The notes under the pieces were generated by a model. It worked only from the letters and a program-made list of their open reading frames with translations, was not told where the DNA came from and ran no database searches. Below, one piece after another: positions 1 to 48,090 of a stretch of DNA of 64,000 nucleotides; the stretch's first letter is position 1; each line of letters opens with the position of its first letter. This stretch comes from a virus: the IMG/VR virus record IMGVR_UViG_3300033153_008341. One strand, written 5' to 3'. The translations under genes and the position numbers were made by a program.

Positions 1-847
1 AAACGTCAAAAGTTATTGCCAAAAGAGTGAAATACGTGAAAAAAAGATCGCCAGAGAAAAAATTTGTGAGGAAAAAACAGCAGATAAACATTAAGTCTGT
101 TGAATATCCCGATCATCCACGTTGGCTACAAGCAACTAAGTGGCCCGAAAGAAAGCATATACGCATTTGTGTTGGTAGTGACATTGCATGGATAAAGCGG
201 AGACACGCTCGTCAACTTGGCAAGTTCCTGTTGAAAGTCACAGGGGCACCGAATAGGCCACTAAAAAAGGCATAGAAAAAAATTATGAGCCGACTAATTA
301 TCAGAGTGGAAATATACTCGGAAAAAGTTAATTTGCCAAAGGTTTTCACAGCAGAGGTATTGACCGCTTTGATTCGGAAAGAATTAGGACCGGAACCTTC
401 AATAGGCGTGGAAATAACAAAGACTGGAAGATTATGACAAAAAGTCCTCAACAAGTTAAGGCTGACGTAAAACAAAGAAGAGCAGACGGGCTGAAAAATT
501 GTTACATGAAAAATCCTTCCTTTAGTCGTGTTTTGGAAGGTGTATTCTGTCCGACAGGAGCCGAAATGGAATCGGTAAGAAGTCTACAAGAGAGCTCACC
601 TTATTCGATAACTGTTTCGGCTCCAAAAATAAGGCTAAGTAAATGAAAAAATGGAAGGTAACAGCCAGTACGATTATCAAAGTTGAAGATGACACTTCTG
701 CCTCAGAGATTGAGTTTTTAGCTTGTGAGATTATATACAACGGGATGCAAGTTCGCAATGAGAAAGTTCTGGTGGAAATTGAGGAGTACAAACCTGAGGC
801 CGCGAATGGACACCTAAAAAAGGGCTGAAAAAAAGCACTGAAAAGTT

Positions 848-1060
848 ATGATTTGTAGAAACGACTTAACAAGAGATTGTAGGAATATAAATTTTTTACT
901 GAAAGAATACCCAAAAGGTTTCGGAGTGGGTTGGCAGGCTTTGGGTAACAAAAATTTGCTCCTACTTTTCCTTTTGTGGTGTTTGCCGATAAACGACGTA
1001 GAAAAACAAAGGACTATGTACTTTGCAGATGAGGATTTATATGCTGCGATGGAATTGTAA
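848..1060 (+). CDS. small protein, member of expanded paralog family (hydrophobic core LLLLFLLWCLP)
   Basis: Translation contains YPKGFGVGWQALGNKNLLLLFLLWCLPIND, resembling the FPKxW..WL.L....NPL.FLFVWL core seen in about 25 other small ORFs in this window. Confidence 0.4.
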   Translation: MICRNDLTRDCRNINFLLKEYPKGFGVGWQALGNKNLLLLFLLWCLPINDVEKQRTMYFADEDLYAAMEL

Positions 1061-1295
1061 CTCAGGAATTGATTATGTGTAAAAAAGCCATTAGAAGATT
1101 AAAAAGAGTTGGCTGGTTTTGCACAATAGGGATATTAAGTACTGTAATTTTCCTTTGGTGTATTTTACCTTTGGATAAAATGTCATTTCTTATAGCTGTG
1201 CTTGTTGAAACTGCCTTTGCCCTTTGGGCGATACTTTGGATAGGCTCAAGTATGAAAAAGACAATAAAGAGCATAAAAAAATATAAGCCATAAAA

Positions 1296-1481
1296 TTGCG
1301 TGATATGATTGATATGAACGAATCACTTGCAAGGTTTCCAAAAGGTAGTTGGCATCCAGAATGGCTTGAACTTTGTATGTGTAGTCCTATGTTATTTTTG
1401 TTTGTTCGGTTTTGTGGCGTGAATACTGGTTGGCATTGGAATGTGATATTAAAAGGAGCAAAGGAAAGAAGCAAAAGGTGA
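1296..1481 (+). CDS. small protein, paralog family (FPKGSWHPEWLELCMCSPMLFLFVRF)
   Basis: Shares the FPKxxW..EWLxL...SPMLxLFV motif with 4422..4622, 3038..3277 and 7922..8110. Overlapping arrangement with neighbouring ORFs. Confidence 0.6.
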   Translation: MRDMIDMNESLARFPKGSWHPEWLELCMCSPMLFLFVRFCGVNTGWHWNVILKGAKERSKR

Positions 1482-1488
1482 AGTTATC

Positions 1489-1686
1489 ATGGTAAAGAAA
1501 AAACACATACAAAAGTTGAATAACTTTCCCCGTGAGTTTCATCCTCATTGGTATATGTTGTACAAATTGAATCCACTCATATTTTTGTTAGTGTGGTTAA
1601 GTGATATGACTGCTATGTTCTCATTTTACAGGTTGTTCAAAGATACGTTGGAGAAAAAGTGCCAAGAAGCCGGGTTAAGTACATGA
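1489..1686 (+). CDS. small protein, paralog family (FPREFHPHWYMLYKLNPLIFLLVWLSD)
   Basis: Motif FP.EFHPHWYMLYKLNPLIFLLVWLSD matches the family consensus W..W..LY..NPL.FLFVWL.D. RBS-like GGAG upstream. Confidence 0.65.
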   Translation: MVKKKHIQKLNNFPREFHPHWYMLYKLNPLIFLLVWLSDMTAMFSFYRLFKDTLEKKCQEAGLST

Positions 1687-1759
1687 AAAAGTTACACCAC
1701 CCATCCTTTCTTGGTGTGTCTGCGAACCGGGAGTTTGCCTCCACTTTCTTCCGGTCGCT

Positions 1760-2221
1760 TTGCGAAAGGGCCAAGGGTTACTGGACCATGACTCTTGGCC
1801 CAAAATTACTGAAACAGTTAAGGGACGGAATCTAATGGGAATGCATACTTACGCTTACTGTGGCTTTGGGCTACTTTATACGGTATTAGATAATGTCACC
1901 GTAGATGAGGACGAAGTTGGACCTGATGAAAGGCTCAGTCTTATGGTAGAACGGGCTGGACATGAATGGGATAAATTTTTTGAAGGGTTAGATTTACAGT
2001 GGCTTTATTTCAATGAATATGACTATGACCCAGATCATCCGAATGGCTACTGGTTAATTTGTCCTAAAATTTTCAAGCTGGAAGGATATGATGGGGTAGA
2101 AAGCTATGATGTTTCCAGCATAACCATAACGCCACAAGATGAAGAACGGCTAAAAAAAGTCGCAGATTTTCTTGGGATAAAGTACGAACCCAAAGTTCAC
2201 ATCGCAGGATATAATGGATGA
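1760..2221 (+). CDS. hypothetical protein (153 aa)
   Basis: Long ORF in the same orientation as its neighbours; no recognisable motif. Confidence 0.5.
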   Translation: MRKGQGLLDHDSWPKITETVKGRNLMGMHTYAYCGFGLLYTVLDNVTVDEDEVGPDERLSLMVERAGHEWDKFFEGLDLQWLYFNEYDYDPDHPNGYWLICPKIFKLEGYDGVESYDVSSITITPQDEERLKKVADFLGIKYEPKVHIAGYNG

Positions 2222-2444
2222 CATAAAGAAAAGCATGATTGTTCATGAAGGTAAGATGGGACAAGTGTATGTTCACTGGATTCCGGTATTTAAGGGTAAT
2301 GCACACTTTGGTCTTTTCCTTCTTGCTTTTGAAAAAGAGATAGGAGTAGGGACAGCAACAAAAACAATATGGGACCAGTTAGCTAAGAAGTTTAACATCG
2401 AAAAGAAATATGAAACTTATAACTATTGGAAAGAAAATAAGTAA
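2214..2444 (+). CDS. small protein, paralog subfamily B (VHWIPVF..FGLFLLAFEKE..IWDQLAKKF)
   Basis: Shares HW[IF]PV-hydrophobic-LE..V...[IV]WxQ with 2448..2663 and 3274..3492. Confidence 0.6.
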   Translation: MDDIKKSMIVHEGKMGQVYVHWIPVFKGNAHFGLFLLAFEKEIGVGTATKTIWDQLAKKFNIEKKYETYNYWKENK

Positions 2445-2447
2445 GGA

Positions 2448-2663
2448 ATGAAACAAATAATCTATGACTTCCACGGTTTGTTTATACATTGGTTCCCAGT
2501 TTATAGTAAGAGCCTTGTGTTTGGTGTATTTATGATTGCTTTAGAACAGCAAGTCAGCAACCAAATAGCTGTACAAGTGTGGGATCAAATGGCCAGAAAA
2601 GAAGGGATCAATACAAAACAAAAGATAAACTTTAGACAATGGAAAGAGAAAGTTAAAAAATGA
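2448..2663 (+). CDS. small protein, paralog subfamily B (IHWFPVYSKSLVFGVFMIALEQQ..VWDQMARKEG)
   Basis: Alignable with 2214..2444 and 3274..3492 over the whole length. Its stop overlaps the start of the next ORF (ATGA). Confidence 0.6.
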   Translation: MKQIIYDFHGLFIHWFPVYSKSLVFGVFMIALEQQVSNQIAVQVWDQMARKEGINTKQKINFRQWKEKVKK

Positions 2664-3034
2664 CAAAATCAATTAACTCGAAAGAAAAAAGGGATTGTTT
2701 TAGGGTCACAATTAAGGCTTACAAACGATGGGCAGACGGGGAAGAAAGGGTGATTGGTACCGCAACCTTAACTTACCATGATTTTATCCCAACTTACAAC
2801 GAATGTGGTACGATAATGACAAGAGCGTGCAAACTTCTTCGTTCGGCAATTACACGAATTAGAAATGGCAAAGCGGTACTACAAGGGGAAAGACATACAG
2901 CAGTTAAAAGATCTATGCACGCAGTTGAAGATGAACAAGAGGGAAGTGAGATAGCTAACTATAGGCAAGTTTACAGTATTAAGTTTAAGAATAGAGAAGA
3001 TGCCAAATCGAACTTAGGGAAAAGGCAAAATTAA
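2660..3034 (+). CDS. hypothetical protein (124 aa)
   Basis: ORF with an ATGA overlap to the upstream gene; no recognisable motif. Confidence 0.5.
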   Translation: MTKSINSKEKRDCFRVTIKAYKRWADGEERVIGTATLTYHDFIPTYNECGTIMTRACKLLRSAITRIRNGKAVLQGERHTAVKRSMHAVEDEQEGSEIANYRQVYSIKFKNREDAKSNLGKRQN

Positions 3035-3037
3035 CAA

Positions 3038-3277
3038 ATGTTAAACAGTTATGATATGTCACCTGAATTAAGACTGGAAATAGACACAGCCAGGGCAAAT
3101 AAAACGCCTGAAAGATTGATTGACTTAATTTGGCTCCACTATTTTCCAAAAGGTTGGCATTCGAGTTGGCTTAGTTTGTACCACTTCAACCCTTTAGTGT
3201 TTATCTTTGTGTGGCTTGGAGATATTGAGGTTGATCGACTTGCTTTAACCACAAGGTATGCAAAGAGAAAACAATGA
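3038..3277 (+). CDS. small protein, paralog family A (FPKGWHSSWLSLYHFNPLVFIFVWLGD)
   Basis: Near-consensus family motif. Confidence 0.65.
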   Translation: MLNSYDMSPELRLEIDTARANKTPERLIDLIWLHYFPKGWHSSWLSLYHFNPLVFIFVWLGDIEVDRLALTTRYAKRKQ

Positions 3278-3492
3278 GTAGCTCATTTATAGAATATGAA
3301 AGTTTATTTGTACATTGGTTTTCTATGTATAGGAGAAACATCCTTTGGGCTTTATTTATTCTTACTTTGGAAAAAAGTGTTGATTATGAGCCTACCCGTG
3401 CTATATGGGCTGGGTTTGAAAAAAGGTTTAGCATAGAGTGTACCAAAATACCTTTTTACGAATGGAAGGCACAAGTGAAAAATGAAAGATGA
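3274..3492 (+). CDS. small protein, paralog subfamily B (VHWFSMYRRNILWALFILTLEKS..IWAGFEKRF)
   Basis: Alignable with 2214..2444 and 2448..2663. ATGA overlap with the upstream gene. Confidence 0.6.
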   Translation: MSSSFIEYESLFVHWFSMYRRNILWALFILTLEKSVDYEPTRAIWAGFEKRFSIECTKIPFYEWKAQVKNER

Positions 3493-3633
3493 AGTTCTTT
3501 TCCCTGTATGCATGGGTACTTTTGTGGTTGGGTGTAAAGTGGTAGGACTGGATAACACAATGACTTTAATGTTGGCCATGATATTTGTGTCAGCTTTAGG
3601 TTGTGCTCTAATAATTAAGAGGAGGAAGAAAAG

Positions 3634-3828
3634 ATGATTACTGCTGTTGATCTTTTGATGGTCTTAGTTTGTATCATTTCATGGTCTGCTTCTGGCTATG
3701 TATTGGGTACAAATGGCAAAAGGTGGTATCACCAACTAACTTTGTGGGGTGGATTCATGGCTGGAACAGTAAGCGTCATGTTTTTACTGTACAGGTGTGA
3801 AATACAAACATACATACCGGGAATGTGA
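3634..3828 (+). CDS. small membrane protein (64 aa, two hydrophobic helices)
   Basis: Strong SD site AAGAGGAGGAAG 8 nt upstream of the ATG; hydrophobic segments. Confidence 0.55.
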   Translation: MITAVDLLMVLVCIISWSASGYVLGTNGKRWYHQLTLWGGFMAGTVSVMFLLYRCEIQTYIPGM

Positions 3829-4239
3829 GGAAAAAGTGAGTGACGCAATCACAAAACAACTAAACAGAATGGATGATGATAGACTCAAAGCTACATGGGA
3901 TGCCTTGTGTTATGTTGATCCAACTCAGTTTGGAAAAGAAGGCTGGAAATCTGAGTGGCAGCAAGGGTTCACGATGGACGATTGGGCACAAGGAGTTGAT
4001 GGTGAGATGGAAAAGAGGGGATTGAAAGGGTTAGACAAAGAGGAAAAGCAAAACTATGGATTTGACGCTTAACATAGGTGGGTGGATATATGCAATATCC
4101 ATAAGAACTTTATGGGACTAATTAAATTGATGAAATATTTCCCAAGCAGGTGGATTACTGCTTATTGGGCACATAAGAAAGGTTACGTTTACTCAAAATC
4201 AGAGGGTAAAATTTGGTGGTATGTTAAGAGGAAGTAAGT

Positions 4240-4425
4240 ATGACTAATATAAGAATAGATTCCAAAGAGTTTGTAGAGAGAATTGCAGAACTTGCAGAGA
4301 GCCGGTGTAACAGCAACTGGGTTATGTTGGCAGCCATAAGTTCTCTGTTACTTTGTTTTGTTTGGGCCTTGCCCAACCCAACTGGTATCTACGTACTAAG
4401 ACGCTTGATGGAAAAAAGTAAATGA
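4240..4425 (+). CDS. small protein, paralog family (ERIAELA...NWVMLAAISSLLLCFVWALP)
   Basis: Clear paralog of 4422..4622: SKEFVERIAELA / SPKFIERIEELA and LLCFVWALP / LLCFVWGLS. Confidence 0.65.
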   Translation: MTNIRIDSKEFVERIAELAESRCNSNWVMLAAISSLLLCFVWALPNPTGIYVLRRLMEKSK

Positions 4426-4622
4426 TGGACTTCATAAAATTAGATTCTCCCAAATTTATAGAACGTATAGAAGAACTTGCACTTAAGACACCCTATGATA
4501 GTGAGTGGGTTGATTTAGCTTGCTTAAGTCCAATGTTGTTGTGTTTTGTTTGGGGTTTATCCGATGTAGCCAGTTTCCGTGTCTTAGCACAAATAATGAA
4601 GAAAGCAAATAATGGAACTTAA
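4422..4622 (+). CDS. small protein, paralog family (EWVDLACLSPMLLCFVWGLSD)
   Basis: Tandem paralog of 4240..4425; its core also matches 1296..1481. Confidence 0.65.
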   Translation: MMDFIKLDSPKFIERIEELALKTPYDSEWVDLACLSPMLLCFVWGLSDVASFRVLAQIMKKANNGT

Positions 4623-4851
4623 ATTTACAGATTGCAGTAGTTCAAAGTTTAAGGTGTATCAGAGACAATGTGTAGGCAAGAAAAGACACAGGACAAGGTC
4701 TTTAGCTAAGCAAGCTGCTAAAAGATGGTCGGAAGAAGATGGCATAAAATATGTTGCTTATTTGTGTCAATGGTGTAATCATTACCATACAGGGCATAGA
4801 AAAACTTGGAAACGTAGAGTTCAAAGAAGATTGGAAACAAGGAATGAATGA
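4612..4851 (+). CDS. small basic Cys/His-rich protein (putative zinc-binding, 79 aa)
   Basis: C..C...CQWCNHYHTGH cluster; very basic (KKRHRTRSLAKQAAKRW). Confidence 0.4.
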   Translation: MELKFTDCSSSKFKVYQRQCVGKKRHRTRSLAKQAAKRWSEEDGIKYVAYLCQWCNHYHTGHRKTWKRRVQRRLETRNE

Positions 4852-5566
4852 CAAAAGTTTCAAATTCGTAGTTATAGCGATGTTGTGCATGATAGCAGCT
4901 ATTTTAGTAGTTGATACTATATATGGTATGATGTCGCCAATCTTCTGGCTTATGGCAATCGTAGCAAGTTTTGCAGGTTTACTTGCTGGGCGTAAAAACA
5001 AAGAGGAATCTAACCGTGAGTGACAAACTAAGGCAACAATTCCAAGATTTGTGTGAGCTGTCGCAGAAGTCAAGGGAATTAAGAGCTTTAATCAAGGTGT
5101 ATGATGACAGCTACGGAACTCAGTTTCTCAATGAGCTTCTCGGCCATTGGTTAAATACTGACCTTAGAGTCGTGAAGTTTCTTGAACTTGAAACTTTGAA
5201 ACTGTCAAAGAATACAGAGTTTATGGAACCACAGATTCAGGTAAGGCCGATCAAAGGTGCGAAGGCATAATATAGGACATCCAAATTTCCCTTCATATTT
5301 TGAGAAAGAATTTCTTCAGTATAGAGGGGATAAAAAATGTTGGGAAAAGGTGTACCGAAAGAACAATATGTACTTTGCTTTCGTTTGGGAAATGATAATA
5401 CATATTGATATATCAATCGGCTTAAAAATAGTACAAAGATCATTGAGGGTATTATGACCGCAATACAGAAAGGGGTAAATCATGCAGACCCACAAATAAT
5501 GGGTCTTACTATCTCCTATCATTCACAATTTACGAGATTCATACAAAACATAGTTGGTTTCATCAA

Positions 5567-5822
5567 GAGGGGTCGAAAGTTTCTAACACTAAATAAGAAA
5601 CTGAGCATATTTCGACCCCTCAAATTAAAAAGCTTAGGGCCGGATTATCTCAGCTCTGACCGATCCCTACTGATAAGGTTTCCCCTCCCCCAACCTTGTC
5701 ACATCGGTTTGGATGAATTTTCCGGCCTAACAAATTGGGGCTGAACATAACTACCGGAATTTGCGGGTATGGCTTAGTGAGTTTGTTTGGCGATAAAACA
5801 CTAAACCTGTTCAGCCCCCAAA
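5567..5822. ncRNA. candidate structured non-coding element with three consecutive long-stem hairpins
   Basis: Hairpin 1: perfect 12-bp inverted repeat GAGGGGTCGAAA (5567-5578) / TTTCGACCCCTC (5610-5621), with an inner GTTTCT/AGAAAC stem. Hairpin 2: TTAGGGCCGGA (5634-5644) / TCCGGCCTAA (5721-5730). Hairpin 3: TTGGGGCTGAAC (5735-5746) / GTTCAGCCCCCA (5809-5820). Local GC is higher than the flanks. The overlapping ORF 5454..5744 has low-complexity, non-protein-like translation in this part. Confidence 0.3.
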
Positions 5823-6050
5823 TATAAAGGGTTAAAGAGATGAAATGGAGAACTTTTAAGAAGGTATTCTATCTCGTCATAGCAATCAACCTTGTGGCTA
5901 TAGGGATAGAAACATACGGATACGTAAGGTACTTCCAATTCGATACACTCCCAACTTTGTGGTTGTATGGTGTTGCCTGTACAACTCTTGGCATAATAGG
6001 AATAACGACTTTATATTGCATGAACAAACCCTGAAGTAAAGGAACTAAGT

Positions 6051-6488
6051 ATGATATTAACAATTATTATTGGCCTAATTGTTCTATGTGTTGCACTGAT
6101 AAGAGTTGCAATATGGTTGGATGATAAAAACGCAGATAACGGAGTTGTAGCCCTTTCCGGCGTTGCTGGTGTCGTTTGTGGTATATTAGGTGCCATTCTT
6201 TTGATTGGTTGGCCCGTGCAGTATGACTCACATATGTCCGAGCAAATTTGGGTAGATTCCTTTATCAGTTCAGACATTCACCAAGAATACCTTGAAATCC
6301 TTCAGTCATCACCTGAAAGTGTTATACAATTGGAAGTGACCGGTAAGAATATGGGTCAATGGTATCGGGACGTAAAGCAAGCAAATTGTATCATTGAAGA
6401 TCATAGACGTTCAAACGCTAACTTCTGGGACCCATTCTACCCCGATTGGAACTCACCGGACCCAATAACCTTTCAAAAAGGCGAGTAG
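6051..6488 (+). CDS. membrane protein (145 aa, N-terminal TM helices)
   Basis: Hydrophobic N-terminus ILTIIIGLIVLCVALIRVAIW..ALSGVAGVVCGILGAILLIGW. Confidence 0.5.
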   Translation: MILTIIIGLIVLCVALIRVAIWLDDKNADNGVVALSGVAGVVCGILGAILLIGWPVQYDSHMSEQIWVDSFISSDIHQEYLEILQSSPESVIQLEVTGKNMGQWYRDVKQANCIIEDHRRSNANFWDPFYPDWNSPDPITFQKGE

Positions 6489-6543
6489 AATTTAACAGTG
6501 AGGTGTACGCAAAGACGAGTTTGGATAACTGAAAGGTGGAGAA

Positions 6544-6927
6544 ATGGCTAACTTAAAGATTCTCGTTTGTGGATCGAGAACTTGGTCCAATTTAGGTCAA
6601 GTGCTAAACAAACTGGCTGCACTTGTAATTCAAGAGGTAGCAAAGCGGAGGTTAGAGCCATATGAAATCACCATAATTTCAGGGGGAGCAAGTGGAGCAG
6701 ATTATTTTGCTGAAGTGTTTGCTAAGGCGTATGATTATAAACTTATTGTAATCAAACCACAATGGTCAAGATATGGTAAGAGTGCTGGATTTCGTCGAAA
6801 CATTGAGATGCTCGAATTAGAACCAGATTTTGTGGTTGCCTTTTGGGATGGTAAATCAAGAGGCACAAATTCTACAATGACAGAGGCAAAAAAACGATCA
6901 ATTGAAGTGATATGCTACAGGATGTGA
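6544..6927 (+). CDS. SLOG-family (DUF2493 / DprA-LOG-like Rossmann) protein
   Basis: KILVCGSRTWSN ... ISGGASGADYFAE ... GKSAGFRRNIEML ... FWDGKSRGT matches the glycine-rich nucleotide-binding signatures of the DUF2493/SLOG family. SD-like GGTGGAG upstream. Confidence 0.6.
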   Translation: MANLKILVCGSRTWSNLGQVLNKLAALVIQEVAKRRLEPYEITIISGGASGADYFAEVFAKAYDYKLIVIKPQWSRYGKSAGFRRNIEMLELEPDFVVAFWDGKSRGTNSTMTEAKKRSIEVICYRM

Positions 6928-7745
6928 AATGCGAAAGTTAAGAGATATTAAGTTTACTGCTGAAGAACACATGCAAGGGTTGATTAGTAAAATGTCAGAC
7001 TTAGAACTATTGGCTTGCTATCAATCCTTACAATTCACTGCTCCTACAAGTTTTGGCATAAGAGGGTTAGAGTCTTATTGGGATGATCAAAGAATGATTT
7101 CCTATTCTACTTGGATAGAGCATTTAGACAGTGCAATACGAAATAGAAAATTGAACCTGGATATCATGTGAAAAGTGAAATTATGAAAGAAAAAATCGCC
7201 AGGAAAATTTATGCGTAAGGATGTTAAAGGTCATACATTTTCAGTTGGTTGGGCGAAGATGGCTATAAAAAACCCTGTTGGAACTTTGTTCATTTACTTT
7301 TGGTTTGAATATGTACATGGGGAAGGTTTTAGTACCATATGGAACGAGATAATTGGGAAACAAGGTGAAGAAACTATTGAGGTAGACCTTGACACTTGAA
7401 AGTTTAGCATGTTTAGGCGGGATGACGTTTAGTGTAGTTGGTTACATACAATTTCGTTCCATGTTACGAAGGGGGGCAAAGTTACGAACGGCAGTCTTAG
7501 TTTGGGCTATGGTTTGGCTTGCTGGAATATGGATTACCACAATGATAGTTGAGGCAAAGTTTGGTGGATAATGAAAACAATGCTATTATATTTCAATTTT
7601 GAGACAATAAGAAAGCAACATAGTGGTTGGGGTAAAATTGTCAGATCAAATATATTATTCGGGATATTACTCTTTGAATTAGCTAATACCTCACCCAAAT
7701 CGTTATCACAATTAAGGTTGATGGATAATATAGAGAAATGCTTAG

Positions 7746-7925
7746 ATGACAAACAAAAAAGGTAGGGATAGAAACCTTAGGTGGTTAAAGACTTTTCCAA
7801 AAGAGTGGAGTAGGGAATGGCTGGAACTTTATAAAATAAATTCTTTAACCTTTTTGTTTGTTTGGTTAGGTGAAAGTAAACTTGATATCATATATATTTC
7901 AAATAGACTCAAAAAATTGATATGA
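7746..7925 (+). CDS. small protein, paralog family A (59 aa, FPKEWSREWLELYKINSLTFLFVWLGE). Not in the supplied ORF track because it is below the length cutoff
   Basis: My own translation from the ATG at 7746 gives MTNKKGRDRNLRWLKTFPKEWSREWLELYKINSLTFLFVWLGESKLD... The stop overlaps the start of 7922..8110. Confidence 0.55.
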   Translation: MTNKKGRDRNLRWLKTFPKEWSREWLELYKINSLTFLFVWLGESKLDIIYISNRLKKLI

Positions 7926-8110
7926 AAGAGCCACTTATTCCAGATTTTATTGAGTTCCCAAAAGAATGGAGTTGGCAATGGTTAAAACTTTACAAAATGA
8001 ATCCAATACTTTTCCTGTTTGTTTGGGTGGCTGAAGTAGATGTATGGGAAGATCACCTTTTAGACAATTTAGTAAGGAAAGAAAAGGATGTACTTAATTT
8101 GTTACCGTAG
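7922..8110 (+). CDS. small protein, paralog family A (FPKEWSWQWLKLYKMNPILFLFVWVAE)
   Basis: Consensus family motif; tandem to 7746..7925. Confidence 0.65.
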   Translation: MKEPLIPDFIEFPKEWSWQWLKLYKMNPILFLFVWVAEVDVWEDHLLDNLVRKEKDVLNLLP

Positions 8111-8483
8111 GGGACAAACTACACTACCAGACAATATGGGGGTAATGCTTATTGATGAAATGGATGCCAACATAGCATTAACAGTTGGACTTAATCAACT
8201 CCGAAGCAATGGAGAAGTAAAAGAGTTTCGGTTAATTTCCCAAGAGAAGCTCCAAATAGTAGGGAGTCATACCCGTGAACTTTCAATAGGAGCAATAGTT
8301 TACCCTGTGATAGAAGTTAAAAAGATTGATGGTATAAGCCCTGTCAAATCTATTATTCGATTAGCAGTAGAAAGAGCCTTTGCTTTTTATAATGGAAATC
8401 AAACGAAAGCAGCTAAGGCTTTAGGAATGTCAAGGAACACATTACGACATCACTTAGGGTTGGCGAAGTACCCATATGAATAA
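8088..8483 (+). CDS. Fis-family HTH DNA-binding protein
   Basis: C-terminal GNQTKAAKALGMSRNTLRHHLGLAKYP resembles the Fis/NtrC-type helix-turn-helix (GNQT.AA..LG..R.TL..KL). Confidence 0.55.
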   Translation: MYLICYRRGQTTLPDNMGVMLIDEMDANIALTVGLNQLRSNGEVKEFRLISQEKLQIVGSHTRELSIGAIVYPVIEVKKIDGISPVKSIIRLAVERAFAFYNGNQTKAAKALGMSRNTLRHHLGLAKYPYE

Positions 8484-8744: not shown

Positions 8745-9047
8745 ATGTTGGAAACTTTTATAACAACAATTGCTGTTCTTGTGTTTATTTACACTGGATT
8801 AGTAATACTCCGGCTTATCTTTGATGACCAAGTTAAATTCAGAGACAAATTGAGACGCCTTGCGTTGCATATAGATGAACCTGAGTTTCGAGGTATAAAT
8901 ATAATCCATCACCCACTTTACAAAGAAGTTCAAGAAGTTCCTCTTATGCGTATGATGGTGCAACCTTGGCGAACGAGTAGGAGCTTTTATAAAGGCACCA
9001 AAATTTTAGCCTTGTACGATAAAAGTCAAAGGGTTAAGAAAGGATAA
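8745..9047 (+). CDS. hypothetical protein with N-terminal TM helix (100 aa)
   Basis: Hydrophobic N-terminus; SD AGGAG upstream. Confidence 0.5.
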   Translation: MLETFITTIAVLVFIYTGLVILRLIFDDQVKFRDKLRRLALHIDEPEFRGINIIHHPLYKEVQEVPLMRMMVQPWRTSRSFYKGTKILALYDKSQRVKKG

Positions 9048-9050
9048 TGA

Positions 9051-9254
9051 AACCAGAAAGTTTTACTCTTTTTCCCAGACCAAATAAACACACATTGGAT
9101 CTCAATAATCAAAAAACATCCTTTATGGTTTCTCTGGATAGTTTTAATGGATTTTCATTACTTTCAAGATGATTGGGTAGAATACCAGCAAATGTGGACA
9201 AATTTAGGCGATAGGTTAGATTTAGAAAAAGGATATGAAGCATTCAAACCTTAA
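9051..9254 (+). pseudogene. paralog-family reading frame lacking an in-frame start codon (possible pseudogene or frameshift-dependent product)
   Basis: The frame opening after the TGA at 9048 encodes ...DQINTHWISIIKKHPLWFLWIVLMDFHY... (family motif). It has no ATG/GTG/TTG before the motif. A 42-codon ORF (ATG 9047) runs in the -1 frame over its 5' part. Confidence 0.3.
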
Positions 9255-9429
9255 GGAAACTAATTTAGTACTCAGGTATCAAGGTTATAGCCTAATTTGG
9301 ATTCCAGTAACAAAGTTCAACCCTTTATGGATTTTGTTTCTTATGTTGTTGGGTAAACAAGAAGTAGACAGTAAGATGGTATGGATTAAAATTAAACAAA
9401 AAGCAGTGATTGAAGGATGGAGACCATGA
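9235..9429 (+). CDS. small protein, paralog family (IWIPVTKFNPLWILFLMLLGKQEV)
   Basis: W.PV..FNPLWILFLML core, hybrid of subfamilies A and B. Confidence 0.55.
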   Translation: MKHSNLKETNLVLRYQGYSLIWIPVTKFNPLWILFLMLLGKQEVDSKMVWIKIKQKAVIEGWRP

Positions 9430-9866
9430 CGGAACGAAGGGGTAATATGTTTGATGTTTTAGGAACTGCGGATTATTTTCTTGTGACAACCAATTCAACC
9501 ATAAACCGCTTCGGAAACCTTGTGATGGGTAGAGGAGCAGCCAAACAGTTATGTGAGCATTGTCCAAAAGTAGCAAAAGCGTTAGGTGATAAGATTCGAG
9601 GATCGGATTATTATATACAAGACTCAGGATTATATGTGAAAAAATCAAGGCTTTGGGCGTTTCAAGTCAAAAGGTATTGGAAACAAAAGGCTAACCCTTT
9701 CTTAATCCGCACAGCTACCATGATTTTGATTGCTAAAGCAAAAAACAACCCAAGTAAAGAGTTCCACTTAAACTTCCCTGGTATTGGTAACGGCGGATTG
9801 CCTATAAATCAAGTATTACCAACGGTTCAAGAATTGCCAGATAATTGTTTTGTGTGGAGATGGTAG
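9417..9866 (+). CDS. macro-domain-like protein (putative ADP-ribose binding/processing)
   Basis: N-terminal FDVLGTADYFLVTTNSTINRFGNLVMGRGAAKQ resembles the macro motif GDIt.l.vDaIVNaAN..L.gGGGVdgAIhraAG. C-terminal NFPGIGNGGLP resembles macro AFPAISTGVYGYP. Confidence 0.4.
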   Translation: METMTERRGNMFDVLGTADYFLVTTNSTINRFGNLVMGRGAAKQLCEHCPKVAKALGDKIRGSDYYIQDSGLYVKKSRLWAFQVKRYWKQKANPFLIRTATMILIAKAKNNPSKEFHLNFPGIGNGGLPINQVLPTVQELPDNCFVWRW

Positions 9867-13029: not shown

Positions 13030-13278
13030 ATGGAGACAACGAAGATTTTCAAAAAAGCTGTGTTCTGGGTTATGGCCGTAGTATGTTCAATGTTTCTATG
13101 GCATTTCTCAGGCGTATTCATCTATGATACTTCAACTGGGAACTTTCTCCTGGGCTTAGCCCTTGTACTTTGCTTGGTATTCTTTTGGGGGTACCAACTT
13201 ATAAGGTTGTTAGCTTGGGTTAATTCAATATGCAGCACAAACGAAAAGGAAAAGAAAGATGCGAAGAGCGAAAATTAG
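13030..13278 (+). CDS. small membrane protein (82 aa, 2 TM)
   Basis: Two hydrophobic helices. Immediately upstream of, and overlapping, the SPFH gene. Confidence 0.5.
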   Translation: METTKIFKKAVFWVMAVVCSMFLWHFSGVFIYDTSTGNFLLGLALVLCLVFFWGYQLIRLLAWVNSICSTNEKEKKDAKSEN

Positions 13279-14251
13279 TTTGCTCTGTTTAATTGTGCTT
13301 CTTGTGACTTTTGCTGGTTGCACAAAAATTGAACCAGGATACGCGGGTATCGTCGTCAACGAATGGGGCGGTGATCGTGGTGTTCAAGAATATGTGGTTC
13401 GTACTGGTAAGGTATGGTACAACCCTTTTACCCAAACCGTAATCGACTGGCCTATACAGGTGCAAAGATCCGTATGGACTAAGAGTGCCAAAGAAGGCTC
13501 GGAAGATAACGAAGAAATTAAGTTTAATGATGAGAACGGATTAGGAATCTCCGCTGATATTGCTTATGCCTTTGAGTGGAGAAAGAGTCGTTTGCCTTAT
13601 TACTACGTAAAATTCCGAGACAAAACCGTTACCGAGTTTATGGATGAGTATGCAAGGGACCGTGTTCGAGAGTACATATCCAATATTGCCAGTACGTACT
13701 CAGTTGAGGATCTATTACGACTAAAGGGACAAGTAGCGATGGAAGCGTTGGATTCCATAAACCATCATTTTGCTCACATGGAATATGAAGAAACCGACGA
13801 CAATGGTATAACTACCCTTGATACTATCGACATCGGCGTCCACTTCACAGCCTTAGGTTTTATTGGTGAACTTCGTCCACCGGATAAAGTGATTCAAATG
13901 ATTGAGGATAAGATTAGTGCCACTCAATTAGCGTTGAAAGCTGAAAATGAAGTTCAAACTAAGAAGGCTTTGGCTGAACAAATGGTGGTAACGGCACGAG
14001 GAAAAGCTGACGCCCAAATTGAGAAAGCAAGAGGAGAAGCAGAAGCTCAAATTGAACGTAAAAGAGGTGAAGCAGAGGGAAATAGACTCTTAGCCGCCTC
14101 AATTACTTCAAACTTAGTTACATGGCGTAGAATTGACGTACAGCACGCTACAATTGAAAAATGGGCTGGACAAGTCCCTCAGTTTGTAAATGGGGGTGAT
14201 GGCAATGGTGGTGGAATAATCTTCCAACTGTTGCAACCGTCCACCCCTTAA
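13259..14251 (+). CDS. SPFH/band-7 (prohibitin/HflK-C-like) domain lipoprotein
   Basis: Signal peptide with lipobox LLVTFAGC. SPFH core EPGYAGIVVNEWGGDRGVQEYVVRTGKVWYNPFTQTVIDWPIQVQ. C-terminal Ala/Glu-rich coiled coil ARGKADAQIEKARGEAEAQIERKRGEAEGNRLLA, typical of HflK/C and stomatin relatives. Confidence 0.8.
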   Translation: MRRAKISLLCLIVLLVTFAGCTKIEPGYAGIVVNEWGGDRGVQEYVVRTGKVWYNPFTQTVIDWPIQVQRSVWTKSAKEGSEDNEEIKFNDENGLGISADIAYAFEWRKSRLPYYYVKFRDKTVTEFMDEYARDRVREYISNIASTYSVEDLLRLKGQVAMEALDSINHHFAHMEYEETDDNGITTLDTIDIGVHFTALGFIGELRPPDKVIQMIEDKISATQLALKAENEVQTKKALAEQMVVTARGKADAQIEKARGEAEAQIERKRGEAEGNRLLAASITSNLVTWRRIDVQHATIEKWAGQVPQFVNGGDGNGGGIIFQLLQPSTP

Positions 14252-16262: not shown

Positions 16263-16502
16263 ATGCCAAAATGTAGACATAACATTGATGTAACAGATGA
16301 AATGAAACACCTTGAAGTTGCTTATAAACCCCACCAGTTTAAAGAATGGTTGAAATTTTTATGTACCATGAAAAACCCTCTTTTTTGCTACTTTATTCTC
16401 GTAATGGAGTGGGTTGAACCAGATATGAACACTACATACTTATTCACTGACGATAAATTATTCAATATAGCCAGGAAGGCGTATAATGACAAAAGGTCTT
16501 AA
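16263..16502 (+). CDS. small protein, paralog family (EWLKFLCTMKNPLFCYFILVMEWVE)
   Basis: EWL.F.....NPLF.YFILV core. Confidence 0.5.
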   Translation: MPKCRHNIDVTDEMKHLEVAYKPHQFKEWLKFLCTMKNPLFCYFILVMEWVEPDMNTTYLFTDDKLFNIARKAYNDKRS

Positions 16503-19784: not shown

Positions 19785-20204
19785 ATGACTGAAGATAAAT
19801 ATTTACTACTTGAAAAAGCCAAAAACCTACTCCCTATGGATGAGACACATGAGCATTACTATACCTTTCTGTTTATCGCCTTAAGGATGGTAGGTTGTTC
19901 CATCACCACTTCAGTCCAAGTTATCCAAGCAGAGTCCCGTGAAGCTGAGGTCGTGGTGTGTTATCATGACCTCTATAAGGATCTAAACACTTATGGAATA
20001 TTGATGCAAGAAGGTGGTAAAAGACCAAACCTAATCAGTGAAAGTGATTTAGAAAAAATGGAGACTGAATCGGGACAGCCTAAAAATAACTTCGGACAAA
20101 TGGTGTGGATTGAAACAATAACTAGGGTGCCTAAGTCAAGTGAAGAATTTGCAAGGGAAATCAAACGGATTAAGGCAGAGCTGGTAAACCCAGCTGGTGG
20201 ATAA
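19785..20204 (+). CDS. hypothetical protein (139 aa)
   Basis: ORF; no motif. Confidence 0.45.
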   Translation: MTEDKYLLLEKAKNLLPMDETHEHYYTFLFIALRMVGCSITTSVQVIQAESREAEVVVCYHDLYKDLNTYGILMQEGGKRPNLISESDLEKMETESGQPKNNFGQMVWIETITRVPKSSEEFAREIKRIKAELVNPAGG

Positions 20205-20469
20205 TGTGAGGCCAAACGTTAAGTACGGACAAGGGCAACTTGAGGAACTACTTAATGAGCTTCTTACGGGGGAAACGTTAGGGATAAACTGTACACTATT
20301 AAAGAAATATCCTACTTTTCTTTTATTCATTTTTTGCCTTTCCTTCGAAGTAGAGTTTAAGTATTGGAATAATTATAACCCCGGCGATGTTGATGGGGGG
20401 AGTCCAGGACGTAAAGTTTTGAAAATACTGTTTGAAAAACATCTTAACCTAAAGGAACCTTCGAAATGA
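20197..20469 (+). CDS. small protein, possible paralog family member (LLKKYPTFLLFIFCLSFEVE)
   Basis: YPTFLLFIFCL hydrophobic core. Confidence 0.35.
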   Translation: MDNVRPNVKYGQGQLEELLNELLTGETLGINCTLLKKYPTFLLFIFCLSFEVEFKYWNNYNPGDVDGGSPGRKVLKILFEKHLNLKEPSK

Positions 20470-28940: not shown

Positions 28941-29285
28941 ATGAAAACTTATTACAAAATAGTAGATATGATCAATGGAAATATGAAGTTCCTCTATCAT
29001 GGATTGAACGGAAGCCTAACAATCCCTTTAAGAGGTTGGATAATGGCAGAGAAACGGGAGGTAACAGATGGAAGTTGTAGTACAAGATACGTTTCAGGCT
29101 TTCATGTGTTCAAAACCAAAGAAGAAGCTGATAAGTATTTAGGAAGATTCAGAAAGTTAAAAACTAAATTGGTTGTTGCTGTTCATTGTAGGGGAATAAG
29201 GAAGAAAGAACATAGTAATGCCCCTGTATTTCTAGCTGATAAGATTAAGTTAATATGGAACGTTAGGTTTAATGACAATAATTAA
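28941..29285 (+). CDS. hypothetical protein (114 aa)
   Basis: ORF; no motif. Confidence 0.4.
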   Translation: MKTYYKIVDMINGNMKFLYHGLNGSLTIPLRGWIMAEKREVTDGSCSTRYVSGFHVFKTKEEADKYLGRFRKLKTKLVVAVHCRGIRKKEHSNAPVFLADKIKLIWNVRFNDNN

Positions 29286-29526
29286 AGGAAGAAATAACCT
29301 ATTGGGAGTTGGACGGGTGGCATTCAAGAATGAAATTTTTGGGAATACACTTACCAATGTTGAATTTTGGCATAGCTCTTGGAAAGTCCTACTTGAGCAG
29401 AAAAATAACACTTGGTTTCTTTTTTACTATTGTTTAGCTATAGGTAATCATGATATTACACTTAGCCATACCAAAGTGATGGCAAACAAGATTAAATGAT
29501 ACGTATTTCAAGAGTACAGGGACAAA

Positions 29527-29712
29527 ATGTGTCGGCTATTCGGAAAAGAAGTTAAAAAGGTAATAAACTGGGAAATCAATTGGCGATATCTTTTGATGGT
29601 ACGAAACCCTTTATGGTTTTCTTTAATTTATTTGCTCACGGTTCATTCATCTGTAATAACATACGATGTAATTAAGAAATTAGGGGGAAGAATAAAGGAC
29701 AAACATGGGTAA
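29527..29712 (+). CDS. small protein, paralog family (NWEINWRYLLMVRNPLWFSLIYLLTV)
   Basis: W..W..L....NPLWF.LIYLL core. Confidence 0.5.
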   Translation: MCRLFGKEVKKVINWEINWRYLLMVRNPLWFSLIYLLTVHSSVITYDVIKKLGGRIKDKHG

Positions 29713-30277
29713 ATTATTCACTTGGGGGAATAAGAAGCTACCAAAGACTACTGCTATCTTTAACATGACACCTGCCACAACCTGTCCTTCTAATCAACTA
29801 GGGCTTTGTCAATTAAAAGAACCAAACAAAAAATGTTATGCTATGGTAGCAGAAAAGATGTACAAAAACGCCTTGTCTCATAGACTAAGACAGTTAGATT
29901 TCTGGTCTACCTGTACAGCACAAGGGTTTGTTAACCAACTGATAGGTGAGAAGAAAAGGAAACACCTTTTGAAGTTACGTTTTAACGAAGCCGGTGACTT
30001 TGTTTCTCAGAACTCGGTTGTAAAAGCAGAGGAGGTTGCTCGTATACTTGCTGAAGAACATAACGTCATAACTTATTGTTACACAGCCAGGAAAGATTTG
30101 GACTTCACTATAAGGAAGCACTTAATAATAAATGGGTCAAATTTTATGGTGGACAATAATTTCAAGGTAATCTATAAGGGACAACCAGCAGGGAATATAG
30201 TTTGTCCTCAAGATTGTAGGGTTTGTGCTATGTGTTCGAAAAGAAAGAAGTTAACTATATCAGTTAGGATTCATTGA
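29705..30277 (+). CDS. Cys-rich hypothetical protein (190 aa)
   Basis: Conserved-looking Cys positions (TTCP, C..C, CPQDCRVCAMC); no family assignment possible. Confidence 0.45.
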   Translation: MGKLFTWGNKKLPKTTAIFNMTPATTCPSNQLGLCQLKEPNKKCYAMVAEKMYKNALSHRLRQLDFWSTCTAQGFVNQLIGEKKRKHLLKLRFNEAGDFVSQNSVVKAEEVARILAEEHNVITYCYTARKDLDFTIRKHLIINGSNFMVDNNFKVIYKGQPAGNIVCPQDCRVCAMCSKRKKLTISVRIH

Positions 30278-30474
30278 TGCAAGTGAGATATTCTCTGGGG
30301 TGTACAGAGGAAAGACCGATGATAATACTTGGTCATGACAGTAAACCTGGCCTGTGTCTTGTTCACAGGTTACCTGGACTAAATTTACTTTATGTCTTAT
30401 TCGTCTTTCTTTTGAGGGCACCGACTGAAACAAATGAAAACTATACACGATTAGGACTACGGAAATGCACGTAG
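30274..30474 (+). CDS. small protein, tandem paralog pair with 30465..30680
   Basis: PGLCLVHRLPGLNLLYVLFVFLLR...TRLGLRK compared with KLCYIRRLVGMNLIYVWFILLLL...EKLGLDT. Confidence 0.5.
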   Translation: MMQVRYSLGCTEERPMIILGHDSKPGLCLVHRLPGLNLLYVLFVFLLRAPTETNENYTRLGLRKCT

Positions 30475-30680
30475 AATATGATAGTGATTATGGTAATAAT
30501 TACACAGGTTGGTCGAGTATGGTAGTTTTCTCTCCAAGGCGTAAACTATGCTATATAAGGAGACTGGTAGGAATGAACCTAATATACGTTTGGTTTATTC
30601 TACTGTTATTACCACTAAAAATACAATGTTCACCACATTTTGAGAAACTTGGGTTAGATACTAATAAGATTATACCATAA
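30465..30680 (+). CDS. small protein, tandem paralog pair with 30274..30474
   Basis: See the partner entry. Confidence 0.5.
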   Translation: MHVEYDSDYGNNYTGWSSMVVFSPRRKLCYIRRLVGMNLIYVWFILLLLPLKIQCSPHFEKLGLDTNKIIP

Positions 30681-33178: not shown

Positions 33179-33724
33179 ATGGAAACAAAAAAGCAACACC
33201 TGTTTGAGACAAAGGTTACACCACTCTTGCCTTACCTTCATCGTCTCGCAGTATCAATAACAAAACACAAAGAAAAGGCAGAGGACTTAGTTCAACGTAC
33301 CATGTTAAAAGCATTTCAAAATTGGGAAAGATTTGATTACCGTTCCGACGTTCATTGTCGAGCATGGGTAATAACAATTATGAACAATGAATTCCTAAAC
33401 ATGCTAAGGACAGAGAAGAACAGCTGGGGAAGTTTAGAAGAAGAAATATATAGGTACATGCCCACTACTACTCTTAAAGCTAACCCTGAACGAGCCTTGC
33501 TTATTAAAAATTTAAAAGAGGATATGGAAAAAGCCATAAATGAACTACCAAAAGAAAACAAGACAGTTATGACTTTACGATTGGTTGAAGAAAGATCGTA
33601 TAGTGAAATAGCAGAGATGACGGGCCTTCCTATGAACAAAGTGAAAAAACAAATCTATGCTGGAAGGAAACATGTACAAAAATGCTTGAAGGCTTATCGA
33701 AATAAGCTTAAGAGCAGCCAATGA
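33179..33724 (+). CDS. ECF-type sigma-70 family RNA polymerase sigma factor
   Basis: Region 2 DLVQRTMLKAFQNWERFD...RAWVITIMNNEFLNMLR. Region 4 HTH VMTLRLVEERSYSEIAEMTGLPMNKVKKQIYAGRKHV. Confidence 0.85.
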   Translation: METKKQHLFETKVTPLLPYLHRLAVSITKHKEKAEDLVQRTMLKAFQNWERFDYRSDVHCRAWVITIMNNEFLNMLRTEKNSWGSLEEEIYRYMPTTTLKANPERALLIKNLKEDMEKAINELPKENKTVMTLRLVEERSYSEIAEMTGLPMNKVKKQIYAGRKHVQKCLKAYRNKLKSSQ

Positions 33725-47274: not shown

Positions 47275-48090
47275 ATGTACGACGCATTCAAAAAACACCT
47301 AGAAGGCCTGGATTCTAGCCCTAACACCATACGAAACTACACCACAGACCTAAAAATGGCTCAGAGACACGGGATAATTACCGAAAATCTGGCCTCAATG
47401 GACCTCAAAAAGCTGGTCAATTTAGACGTAAAGCCTAGAACCAAGCAGAGAATGAGGGCCGCAATACGGAGATACGCCAGGTTCTGTGCAGGTACTGGTA
47501 TTATCAGTCAGGTGCCAGCCGAACTGACCAACTTGGACCTGCCAAAAATAACCAGGAACATCCCTAGAGTCACCCGTTCAGGGAAGGCTAAGGAGTTGCT
47601 GGCTAAAATTGATGACGCGGAATTGTCCCTAATCATTCACCTCTTGGCGACTACGGGATGCCGAATATCATCCCTTGCGGACCTCGAAATTGAGGATTTT
47701 GGTACTAAATCTGTCTTGTTCAGGACCTCCAAAGGGGGTAAACCGTATGTGTCGATCCTTACCCCCGACACCAAAGAAGCATTCCTAAAGCACATCAAAC
47801 ATAGGGCTTCTGGATACGTTTTTTTAACTAATGCTGATCGCAAAGCTACCCCTGATAGCCTACGTGGTAAGCTCTACGCTGGACTTGGTGAAGATTATGT
47901 AAATCCCCACAGTTTTAGACACGGAGTAGCAACAGAGCTTATTGAAAATGGTGTAGATCTAACAGTTGTAAAAACCTTCATGAACCACACCAGCGTTACA
48001 GTTACAGAGACCTATGTCCACTTAGCAGATGAATACATAGTGAAGAAACTCAAAGGTAAACACCCAATGTTAAGTGATTCTGTTGATTAG
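47275..48090 (+). CDS. tyrosine site-specific recombinase (integrase / XerD-like)
   Basis: Catalytic residues in order: TGCRISS (Arg), HSFRHGVATEL (His-x-x-Arg), TETYVHL (Tyr nucleophile). 271 aa with no large N-terminal arm-binding domain. Confidence 0.85.
   Translation: MYDAFKKHLEGLDSSPNTIRNYTTDLKMAQRHGIITENLASMDLKKLVNLDVKPRTKQRMRAAIRRYARFCAGTGIISQVPAELTNLDLPKITRNIPRVTRSGKAKELLAKIDDAELSLIIHLLATTGCRISSLADLEIEDFGTKSVLFRTSKGGKPYVSILTPDTKEAFLKHIKHRASGYVFLTNADRKATPDSLRGKLYAGLGEDYVNPHSFRHGVATELIENGVDLTVVKTFMNHTSVTVTETYVHLADEYIVKKLKGKHPMLSDSVD

Follow-up and report, generated by a model that had tools for sequence, protein, structure and literature searches.

Phages keep host-takeover and anti-defence functions in blocks of small orphan genes, and the genes in such blocks are usually unrelated singletons that are hard to study. 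Host-takeover or pre-early modules of large virulent phages include gp37-gp60 of SPO1, the pre-early region of T5 and the terminal-repeat "Tre" genes of Twort-like phages. In eukaryotic DNA viruses, host-range and immune-evasion genes undergo "genomic accordion" expansions, such as those of the MGF families of African swine fever virus (ASFV) and the amplification of poxvirus K3L. The small early proteins GoF, MotB.1 and Frd.2 of phage T4 have an LSm-like fold in common despite their dissimilar sequences (PMC12152347). Here, we describe an array of small paralogous genes near the start of a 64,000-nucleotide stretch of viral DNA (IMG/VR record IMGVR_UViG_3300033153_008341), which was analysed over its whole length and is called the window below. 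The family has no fewer than 16 paralogues, and probably 19, with lengths of 59-90 residues. We tentatively read it, with a probability of roughly 0.4, as a small helical scaffold that has expanded in tandem within one lineage, probably to supply early host-interaction proteins.

Like the SPO1, T5 and Twort-like modules, the array consists of closely packed genes of 50-150 codons that all point the same way and lack database homologues; it lies beside replication genes and is interleaved with small membrane proteins. Unlike those modules, whose genes are mostly unrelated, it draws 15 of the approximately 40 genes in the first 9.5 kb of the window (over one third) from one family, which has 16-19 copies in at most 66.6 kb; in addition, the module is known here from position and strand alone. 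The parallel with the LSm-like set of T4 (PMC12152347) is that several small uncharacterised early proteins of one genome would be built on one scaffold, by descent or by convergence. That set has three members, is beta-rich and has relatives in other phages, whereas the 16-19 members described here are predicted to be all-helical, are recognisable by sequence and have no relatives elsewhere. With the ASFV MGF families and poxvirus K3L the array has in common the tandem amplification and subsequent divergence of a small viral gene; the viruses and hosts are different, there is no sequence or fold relation, and a link between copy number and adaptation is drawn here by analogy only. A block of small orphan phage genes, some of them paralogous, is familiar, and what differs here is the scale, the predicted all-helical scaffold with a fully hydrophobic central helix and the absence of relatives.

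In the best-conserved members the motif that defines the family reads [FY]-P-[KR]-x-[WF]-x3-W-[LIV]-x-L-[YC]-x2-[NS]-[PS]-[LM]-x-F-[LI]-F-V-W-L-x-[DE]; after it comes an amphipathic stretch, in most members with many Lys and Arg residues. A first-pass annotation had listed nine open reading frames (ORFs) with this motif, divided into a main group (A) and an interleaved subfamily (B), and had called them at least ten consecutive genes. All nine exist on the + strand where they had been placed, and the common protein motif is borne out by the BLASTP links and hidden Markov model (HMM) rankings given below. The description as consecutive did not hold, as nine genes were listed and unrelated genes, including those for membrane proteins at 1069, 3482 and 3634, are interleaved among them; the family does, however, reach well past position 4622. 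It is about twice as large as the original list, which had missed the members at 5257, 7211, 7571, 7746, 7922 and 9235 in the first array. After decoy-controlled iteration it consists of 19 genes, all on the + strand, 15 between 848 and 9429 and four farther on, and each was independently called as a gene in the source annotation of the Joint Genome Institute (JGI):

848..1060 (+), divergent A-type member, 70 residues, YPKGFGVGWQALGNKNLLLLFLLW; leave-one-out E 3.5e-4, rank 1, 15.3 bits, the weakest core member
1296..1481 (+), A member, 61 residues, or 58 from the probable start ATG at 1305, as in the JGI call P0007 (58 residues); leave-one-out E 4e-8
1489..1686 (+), A member, 65 residues; leave-one-out E 1e-9
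2214..2444 (+), B member, 76 residues, or 69 from the JGI start; leave-one-out E 4.5e-6
2448..2663 (+), B member, 71 residues; leave-one-out rank 1; AlphaFold model of four helices
3038..3277 (+), A member, 79 residues, JGI start a few codons later; leave-one-out E 2e-14; AlphaFold model
3274..3492 (+), B member, 72 residues; start overlaps the stop of the A member 3038..3277
4240..4425 (+), A2 member, 61 residues; the sole member with a 19-residue uncharged stretch
4422..4622 (+), A2 member, 66 residues; 46% identical to 4240..4425, with start/stop overlap
5257..5457 (+), intermediate member, 66 residues, CWEKVYRKNNMYFAFVWE; 14.1 bits, above all 4140 decoys
7211..7399 (+), intermediate member, 62 residues, GWAKMAIKNPVGTLFIYFWFE; 13.6 bits, above all decoys
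7571..7765 (+), distant B-like member, 64 residues, GWGKIVRSNILFGILLFE; 13.9 bits, above all decoys
7746..7925 (+), A member, 59 residues, FPKEWSREWLELYKINSLTFLFVWLGE; E 1.4e-13
7922..8110 (+), A member, 62 residues, FPKEWSWQWLKLYKMNPILFLFVWVAE; E 1.5e-12
9235..9429 (+), bridge member, 64 residues, with a B-like IWIPV and an A-like NPLWILFL; top rank with A-only and B-only HMMs
16263..16502 (+), distant member, 79 residues, FKEWLKFLCTMKNPLFCYFILVMEW; 17.2 bits at iteration 2, best decoy 10.8
20197..20469 (+), marginal and uncertain member, 90 residues; 10.7 bits, best decoy 9.0
29272..29499 (+), distant member, 75 residues, SSWKVLLEQKNNTWFLFYYCL; 17.0 bits; BLASTP E 3e-6 to 29527..29712
29527..29712 (+), distant member, 61 residues, INWRYLLMVRNPLWFSLIYLL; 12.5 bits, above all decoys

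The coherence of the family was assessed by leave-one-out scoring, in which each of 12 core members was ranked by an HMM built from the other eleven among the approximately 450 remaining ORFs of the window, both strands included. All 12 ranked first, with E values of 2e-14 to 3.5e-4, and the best of 4140 shuffled decoys reached 9.4 bits. Antisense ORFs of the window, an internal negative control, did not score with the family HMM. Iteration of the HMM with a decoy-based threshold enlarged the family by 5257..5457, 7211..7399, 7571..7765 and 29527..29712, then by 16263..16502 and 29272..29499, and lastly by the marginal 20197..20469. Within the window, BLASTP connects the members at 1296, 1489 and 3038 (E 1e-3 to 3e-9), those at 4240 and 4422 (E 6e-15) and the three B ORFs at 2214, 2448 and 3274 (E 2e-8 to 6e-12). 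The same search places 7746..7925 and 7922..8110 among the best A members, and 9235..9429 resembles both the A and the B groups.

What has been conserved among these genes is protein rather than DNA. Even the closest gene pairs have a DNA identity of only 71-75% over 49-81 nucleotides. Across the 27-codon core of the A members, mean identity is 0.49, 0.59 and 0.40 at codon positions 1, 2 and 3, against a composition background of 0.28, and the B members give nearly the same values (0.51, 0.61 and 0.40). The motif is always in frame and occupies a comparable position in coding-strand ORFs of much the same length, and its conserved residues are encoded by different codons in distant members. Judged by comparison of the copies, the codon-position pattern and the in-frame motif are the signature of old duplications kept by selection at the protein level. 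The proposal that these were old duplications under selection rather than a DNA repeat is thus upheld by the codon-position identities, the low DNA identity and the leave-one-out HMM. Local tandem duplication is the obvious generator of most of the family because there are seven adjacent member pairs (1296/1489, 2214/2448, 3038/3274, 4240/4422, 7571/7746, 7746/7922 and 29272/29527) and because 848 is set apart from 1296 by a single unrelated gene. Six of the seven pairs overlap or are at most 27 nucleotides apart, the other being separated by 242 nucleotides, and in four (4240/4422, 7746/7922, 3038/3274 and 7571/7746) the start of one gene overlaps the stop of the other.

The relation between A and B is more distant. 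An HMM built from A members misses the three B proteins, and one built from B members finds no A protein above decoys. Alignment of the two profiles with hhalign recovers the same motif in the same register at low probability (13%, P 0.002). The bridge member 9235..9429 has the top rank with the A-only (13.4 bits) and the B-only HMM (19.7 bits), scores that none of the 4140 decoys attained, and the members at 5257 and 7211 come at ranks 2-6 with both models (5257 second with A-only and fourth with B-only, 7211 third with A-only). A and B therefore probably form one superfamily. The earlier description of B as an interleaved subfamily is upheld through these intermediates, and not through direct detection of one group by the HMM of the other.

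Profile scans of the 19 members against Pfam-A, PHROGs v4, NCBIfam 20 and PADLOC-DB 2 gave no consistent match, and the A and B profiles found nothing among PDB sequences. The only profile match below E 0.05 for any member was that of Pfam DUF5338 (PF17273) to 27 residues of 2214..2444 (E 0.005); its 17.3 bits lie under the cut-off of 25.9 and it concerns one member of 19, and we attribute it to chance. Three word-indexed profile searches of 5.8 billion protein clusters returned proteins of the same contig only. An exhaustive hmmsearch of 1.84 billion representatives returned self matches and two false positives, P0009 and P0010, a leucine-rich repeat protein and a low-complexity repeat protein whose scores are sums of 7-8 partial matches. 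When one A and one B member were run by tblastn against 50,697 phage records, neither found a match. The peptide NP[LIMV]xF[LIMV]FVW was also sought as a degenerate DNA pattern in IMG/VR and in one genome per GTDB species, which gave 8 and 72 matches, respectively; HMM comparison showed that they have only the selected nonapeptide in common with the family, as in the N-terminus of LpxK. A pattern scan of IMG/VR based on the family alignment gave 77 matches, none of which was confirmed, and none of 13 metagenome loci with homologues (at most 44% identity) of a SLOG-domain gene from the array carries the family. The protein database assigns every family protein to one JGI contig of 66,585 bp. 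On these searches the family is without a detectable relative outside this 66.6-kb contig, a statement to be read with the limit that relatives separated from it by the distance between A and B would go undetected in databases of such size. The view that the family could not be placed in any characterised one has accordingly held up against both the family collections and the large protein sets.

Only about 27 residues are conserved, and outside them the subgroups can essentially not be aligned with one another. The motif is internal, starting 15-45 residues from the N-terminus. AlphaFold2 models were built with a shallow alignment of 16 paralogues. For 3038..3277 the mean predicted local distance difference test score (pLDDT) is 74, rising to about 90 over residues 41-60, and the model has a helix at 42-50, an Asn-Pro break, helices at 52-61 and 67-78 and two weaker N-terminal helices. 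Four helices make up the model of the B member 2448..2663, which has a pLDDT of 66. All faces of the second core helix (H2) are hydrophobic (Eisenberg mean 0.86, moment 0.14), and H1 and H3 are amphipathic. With the moderate confidence that such models allow, the core would consist of an amphipathic helix with an invariant Trp (W-x2-[LVM]-[YF]), an Asn/Ser-Pro helix cap, a 10-residue all-hydrophobic helix ([LM]-x-F-[LI]-F-V-W-L), usually acidic-capped, and an amphipathic, mostly basic C-terminal helix. The N- and C-terminal parts appear free to vary, and B members seem to gain an extra Trp-containing helix.

The window (G+C 36-41%) is divided into two halves. The first approximately 34 kb are on the + strand and form a long series of mostly small genes that ends with those for DNA ligase, a radical-SAM protein, a SpoU methylase and an ECF-like sigma factor. 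The remainder is mostly on the - strand and codes for an 1855-residue tape measure protein, an SbcC-like nuclease (SbcCD), ribonucleotide reductase (RNR), DnaB helicase, RecA, ThyX, UDG, a ClpP-like protease, peptide deformylase and primase; the GC skew flips at the switch. Because of the tape measure, replication and other gene content, the window is therefore part of a tailed phage, uncultured and very divergent. Between its DnaB helicase and known phage helicases, identity does not exceed about 25%, a search of IMG/VR for sister phages by means of this helicase found none, and megablast of window positions 1-8000 against the 50,697 phage records gave no match. Other landmarks are:

33179..33724 (+), ECF-like sigma factor with regions 2 and 4, near the end of the + block; the strand switch and the GC-skew reversal follow directly, at about 34000
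47275..48090 (+), tyrosine integrase/recombinase, the sole + gene within the - strand block
48070..53478 (-), giant ORF of 1802 residues, beside the 1855-residue tape measure gene
53481..57707 (-), adjoining giant ORF of 1408 residues, likewise beside the tape measure gene

Neither giant protein matched a Pfam or PHROG family, and tblastn of the 1802-residue protein against the same phage records gave no match. The integrase is present though the other gene content (RNR, RecA, SbcCD, ThyX, peptide deformylase) looks lytic.

Several neighbours of the array have recognisable domains. A macro domain protein of 149 residues (9417..9866, +) starts within the end of the bridge member 9235..9429 and matches PDB 5m31, "Appr-1-p processing domain protein" (E 1.4e-3), and phrog_335 (E 1.8e-14). 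It is an anti-defence lead in that it could reverse ADP-ribosylation; DarT-type toxins are an example of the ADP-ribosylation defence that a macro domain might counter. A YspA/SLOG-domain protein (6544..6927, +; PF10686, E 3e-11) lies mid-array. Directly after the 7746/7922 pair is a gene for a 131-residue protein with a C-terminal Fis-type helix-turn-helix (HTH) (8088..8483, +; PF02954, E 9e-7), which may be an early regulator. Farther on, an SPFH/Band-7 protein (13259..14251, +; PF01145, E 6e-17) with an N-terminal lipoprotein-like signal has small membrane proteins on both sides. Two paralogue pairs unrelated to the main family are also found on the + strand, 3797..4072 with 6929..7171 (BLASTP E 7e-7) and the tandem pair 30274..30474 and 30465..30680 (E 1e-4); the duplication of small genes seems to be widespread in this phage. 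Immediately ahead of the first member, the 3' ends of two genes contain a 37-nucleotide direct repeat (245..281 and 798..834, 73% identity, GGC.C.GAAT.G.C.C..AAAAAGG...GAAAAAA). Upstream of the start codons in the array the sequence is A-rich and strong Shine-Dalgarno motifs are few, which hints at a host with weak Shine-Dalgarno usage.

How might such a family work? In the reading that we prefer, in which one small helical scaffold has expanded within a single lineage, the hydrophobic helix would not span a membrane. It would be buried at the centre of a small bundle of helices, formed by a monomer or by an oligomer, and the variable N- and C-terminal helices would be the functional surfaces. 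The paralogues would then be a diversified repertoire of small early proteins on a common scaffold, each with a different surface for a host target or a defence component, and an arms race or a broad host range could have left its mark in their repeated duplication and divergence. The context of the array (the macro domain, SLOG/YspA and Fis-type HTH proteins and a strand in common with the ligase and sigma-factor genes) is compatible with a host-interaction role. It is compatible with host takeover, exclusion and anti-defence, and does not discriminate between the three. A more far-reaching version, in which one private mini-scaffold (Trp helix, N-P cap and all-hydrophobic helix), with a fold that has no relatives, gave rise to about 19 diversified binders acting as an effector or anti-defence multigene family, each neutralising a different host protein or immune system, as a phage counterpart of the amplification arms race of pox- and asfarviruses, strikes us as quite unlikely.

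A number of points weigh against a diversified early repertoire. That the genes are expressed early is an assumption based solely on their order and strand; a sigma-70 promoter scan showed no enrichment (31 found, 34.9 expected), and neither did a terminator scan. The family is on one contig only, so that conservation across phages cannot serve as evidence, and A and B are connected only transitively, through the intermediates at 9235, 5257 and 7211. The AlphaFold models are of moderate confidence, with mean pLDDT values of 66 and 74 and predicted template modelling scores (pTM) of 0.40-0.43 from a shallow alignment. Fold searches gave no specific match, and Foldseek of the models against BFVD found nothing. 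One member, 4240..4425, is alone in having values like those of a transmembrane (TM) protein: an uncharged run of 19 residues, a Kyte-Doolittle value of 2.08 and a summed insertion free energy (dG) of 0.14. Finally, a 10-residue helix that is hydrophobic on all faces, with flanking Trp and Tyr and a basic tail, fits an interfacial membrane anchor.

This last point leads to the alternative that survives best, namely that these are membrane-associated small proteins. The hydrophobic helix, alone or as a kinked hairpin with the amphipathic helix, would dip into the cytoplasmic membrane to form a monotopic or interfacial anchor, with the basic C-terminus on the inner leaflet. The proteins would then have an envelope function, such as superinfection exclusion or the modulation of transport, division or lysis timing. 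The strong hydrophobicity of H2, which has no polar face, and the TM-like values of 4240..4425 speak for such an arrangement, as does the company that the family keeps, many genuine small TM proteins being interleaved in the array:

1069..1293, 3482..3637, 3634..3828, 4751..5023, 5840..6034, 6051..6488, 7389..7571 and 8745..9047 (+), at least eight genuine small membrane proteins amid the family; Kyte-Doolittle maxima 1.8-2.9, summed dG at most 0.95

These neighbours also served as positive controls for the criterion applied to a membrane segment, about 18 or more uncharged residues with favourable insertion energy, which they pass. In the family, the uncharged run around the motif is just 7-12 residues long in 17 of the 19 members and 7-16 across 18 of them, and the first helix contains Lys, Glu or His in most members. 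The 19-residue Kyte-Doolittle maxima of most members are 0.85-1.7, and the summed dG is +4.6 to +9.3 kcal/mol for 18 of the 19, compared with -4.3 to +0.95 kcal/mol for the neighbouring membrane proteins; these are crude scales rather than a trained predictor, and the dG is a simple sum of Hessa-scale values. Neither a signal peptide nor a lipobox was found. Because of the short uncharged runs, the low hydropathy and the unfavourable dG in 18 of the 19 members, a classical membrane span is unlikely to be a family property. The motif had been described at first as a Trp-rich segment leading into a short helix, either amphipathic or TM; of this, AlphaFold predicts the helix and a Trp-bearing amphipathic helix, and the TM part finds no support in 18 of the 19 members. 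Overall, we regard membrane association, including the interfacial form, as unlikely, while taking it seriously.

Two further alternatives are improbable to a similar, greater degree. The paralogues may be small nucleic-acid-binding regulators, in which the hydrophobic helix is helix 1 of an HTH-like tri-helical unit, fullest in B, and different copies act at different DNA or RNA sites to reprogram transcription. To the eye, the C-termini of B members, e.g. LAKKFNIEKKYETYNYWKEN, look like the helix 2-turn-helix 3 of an HTH, and most members have a net basic charge. The N-terminal F-P-K-x-W segment followed by a hydrophobic helix may resemble the start of lambda-O/HTH_36 winged helices, a likeness that draws no support from profiles or fold searches. 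Nonetheless, with a threshold as loose as E<=5, the HTH families of Pfam and NCBIfam gave no match to any of the 19 members, no PDB sequence matched, and the A members stop one helix past the hydrophobic helix and would thus be without a recognition helix. Alternatively, the conserved core may be a common docking or targeting element rather than a fold, which brings all paralogues to one partner or location while the variable tails carry the function. Otherwise unrelated internal proteins of T4 have a capsid-targeting sequence in common in this manner, and the restriction of conservation to the core, with unalignable flanks, would be expected of such an element. However, the tails are just 15-35 residues long and offer little cargo, and AlphaFold puts the motif at the structured centre. 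The T4 type is an N-terminal targeting peptide with a prohead-protease site, whereas the motif here is internal, and the genes sit with replication and early-type genes on the strand opposite to the tape measure gene.

The least credible alternative, that a DNA-level repeat such as a regulatory element or recombination site is read through by spurious ORFs, finds some encouragement in the short stretches of 60-75% DNA identity between the closest members, but is effectively refuted by the constant frame, position, ORF length and strand of the motif, by the concentration of identity at codon positions 1 and 2 with different codons in distant members, and by the antisense ORFs without a score.

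The copy number of this family is unusual for a phage of such size and implies sustained selection for diversification. Its paralogue alignment provides a built-in map of scaffold versus variable residues. If the members are merely structural or membrane fillers, they would be one more orphan family. If, on the other hand, the copies do hit different host factors, the array would represent a compact natural library of small binders and a phage example of adaptation by gene amplification.

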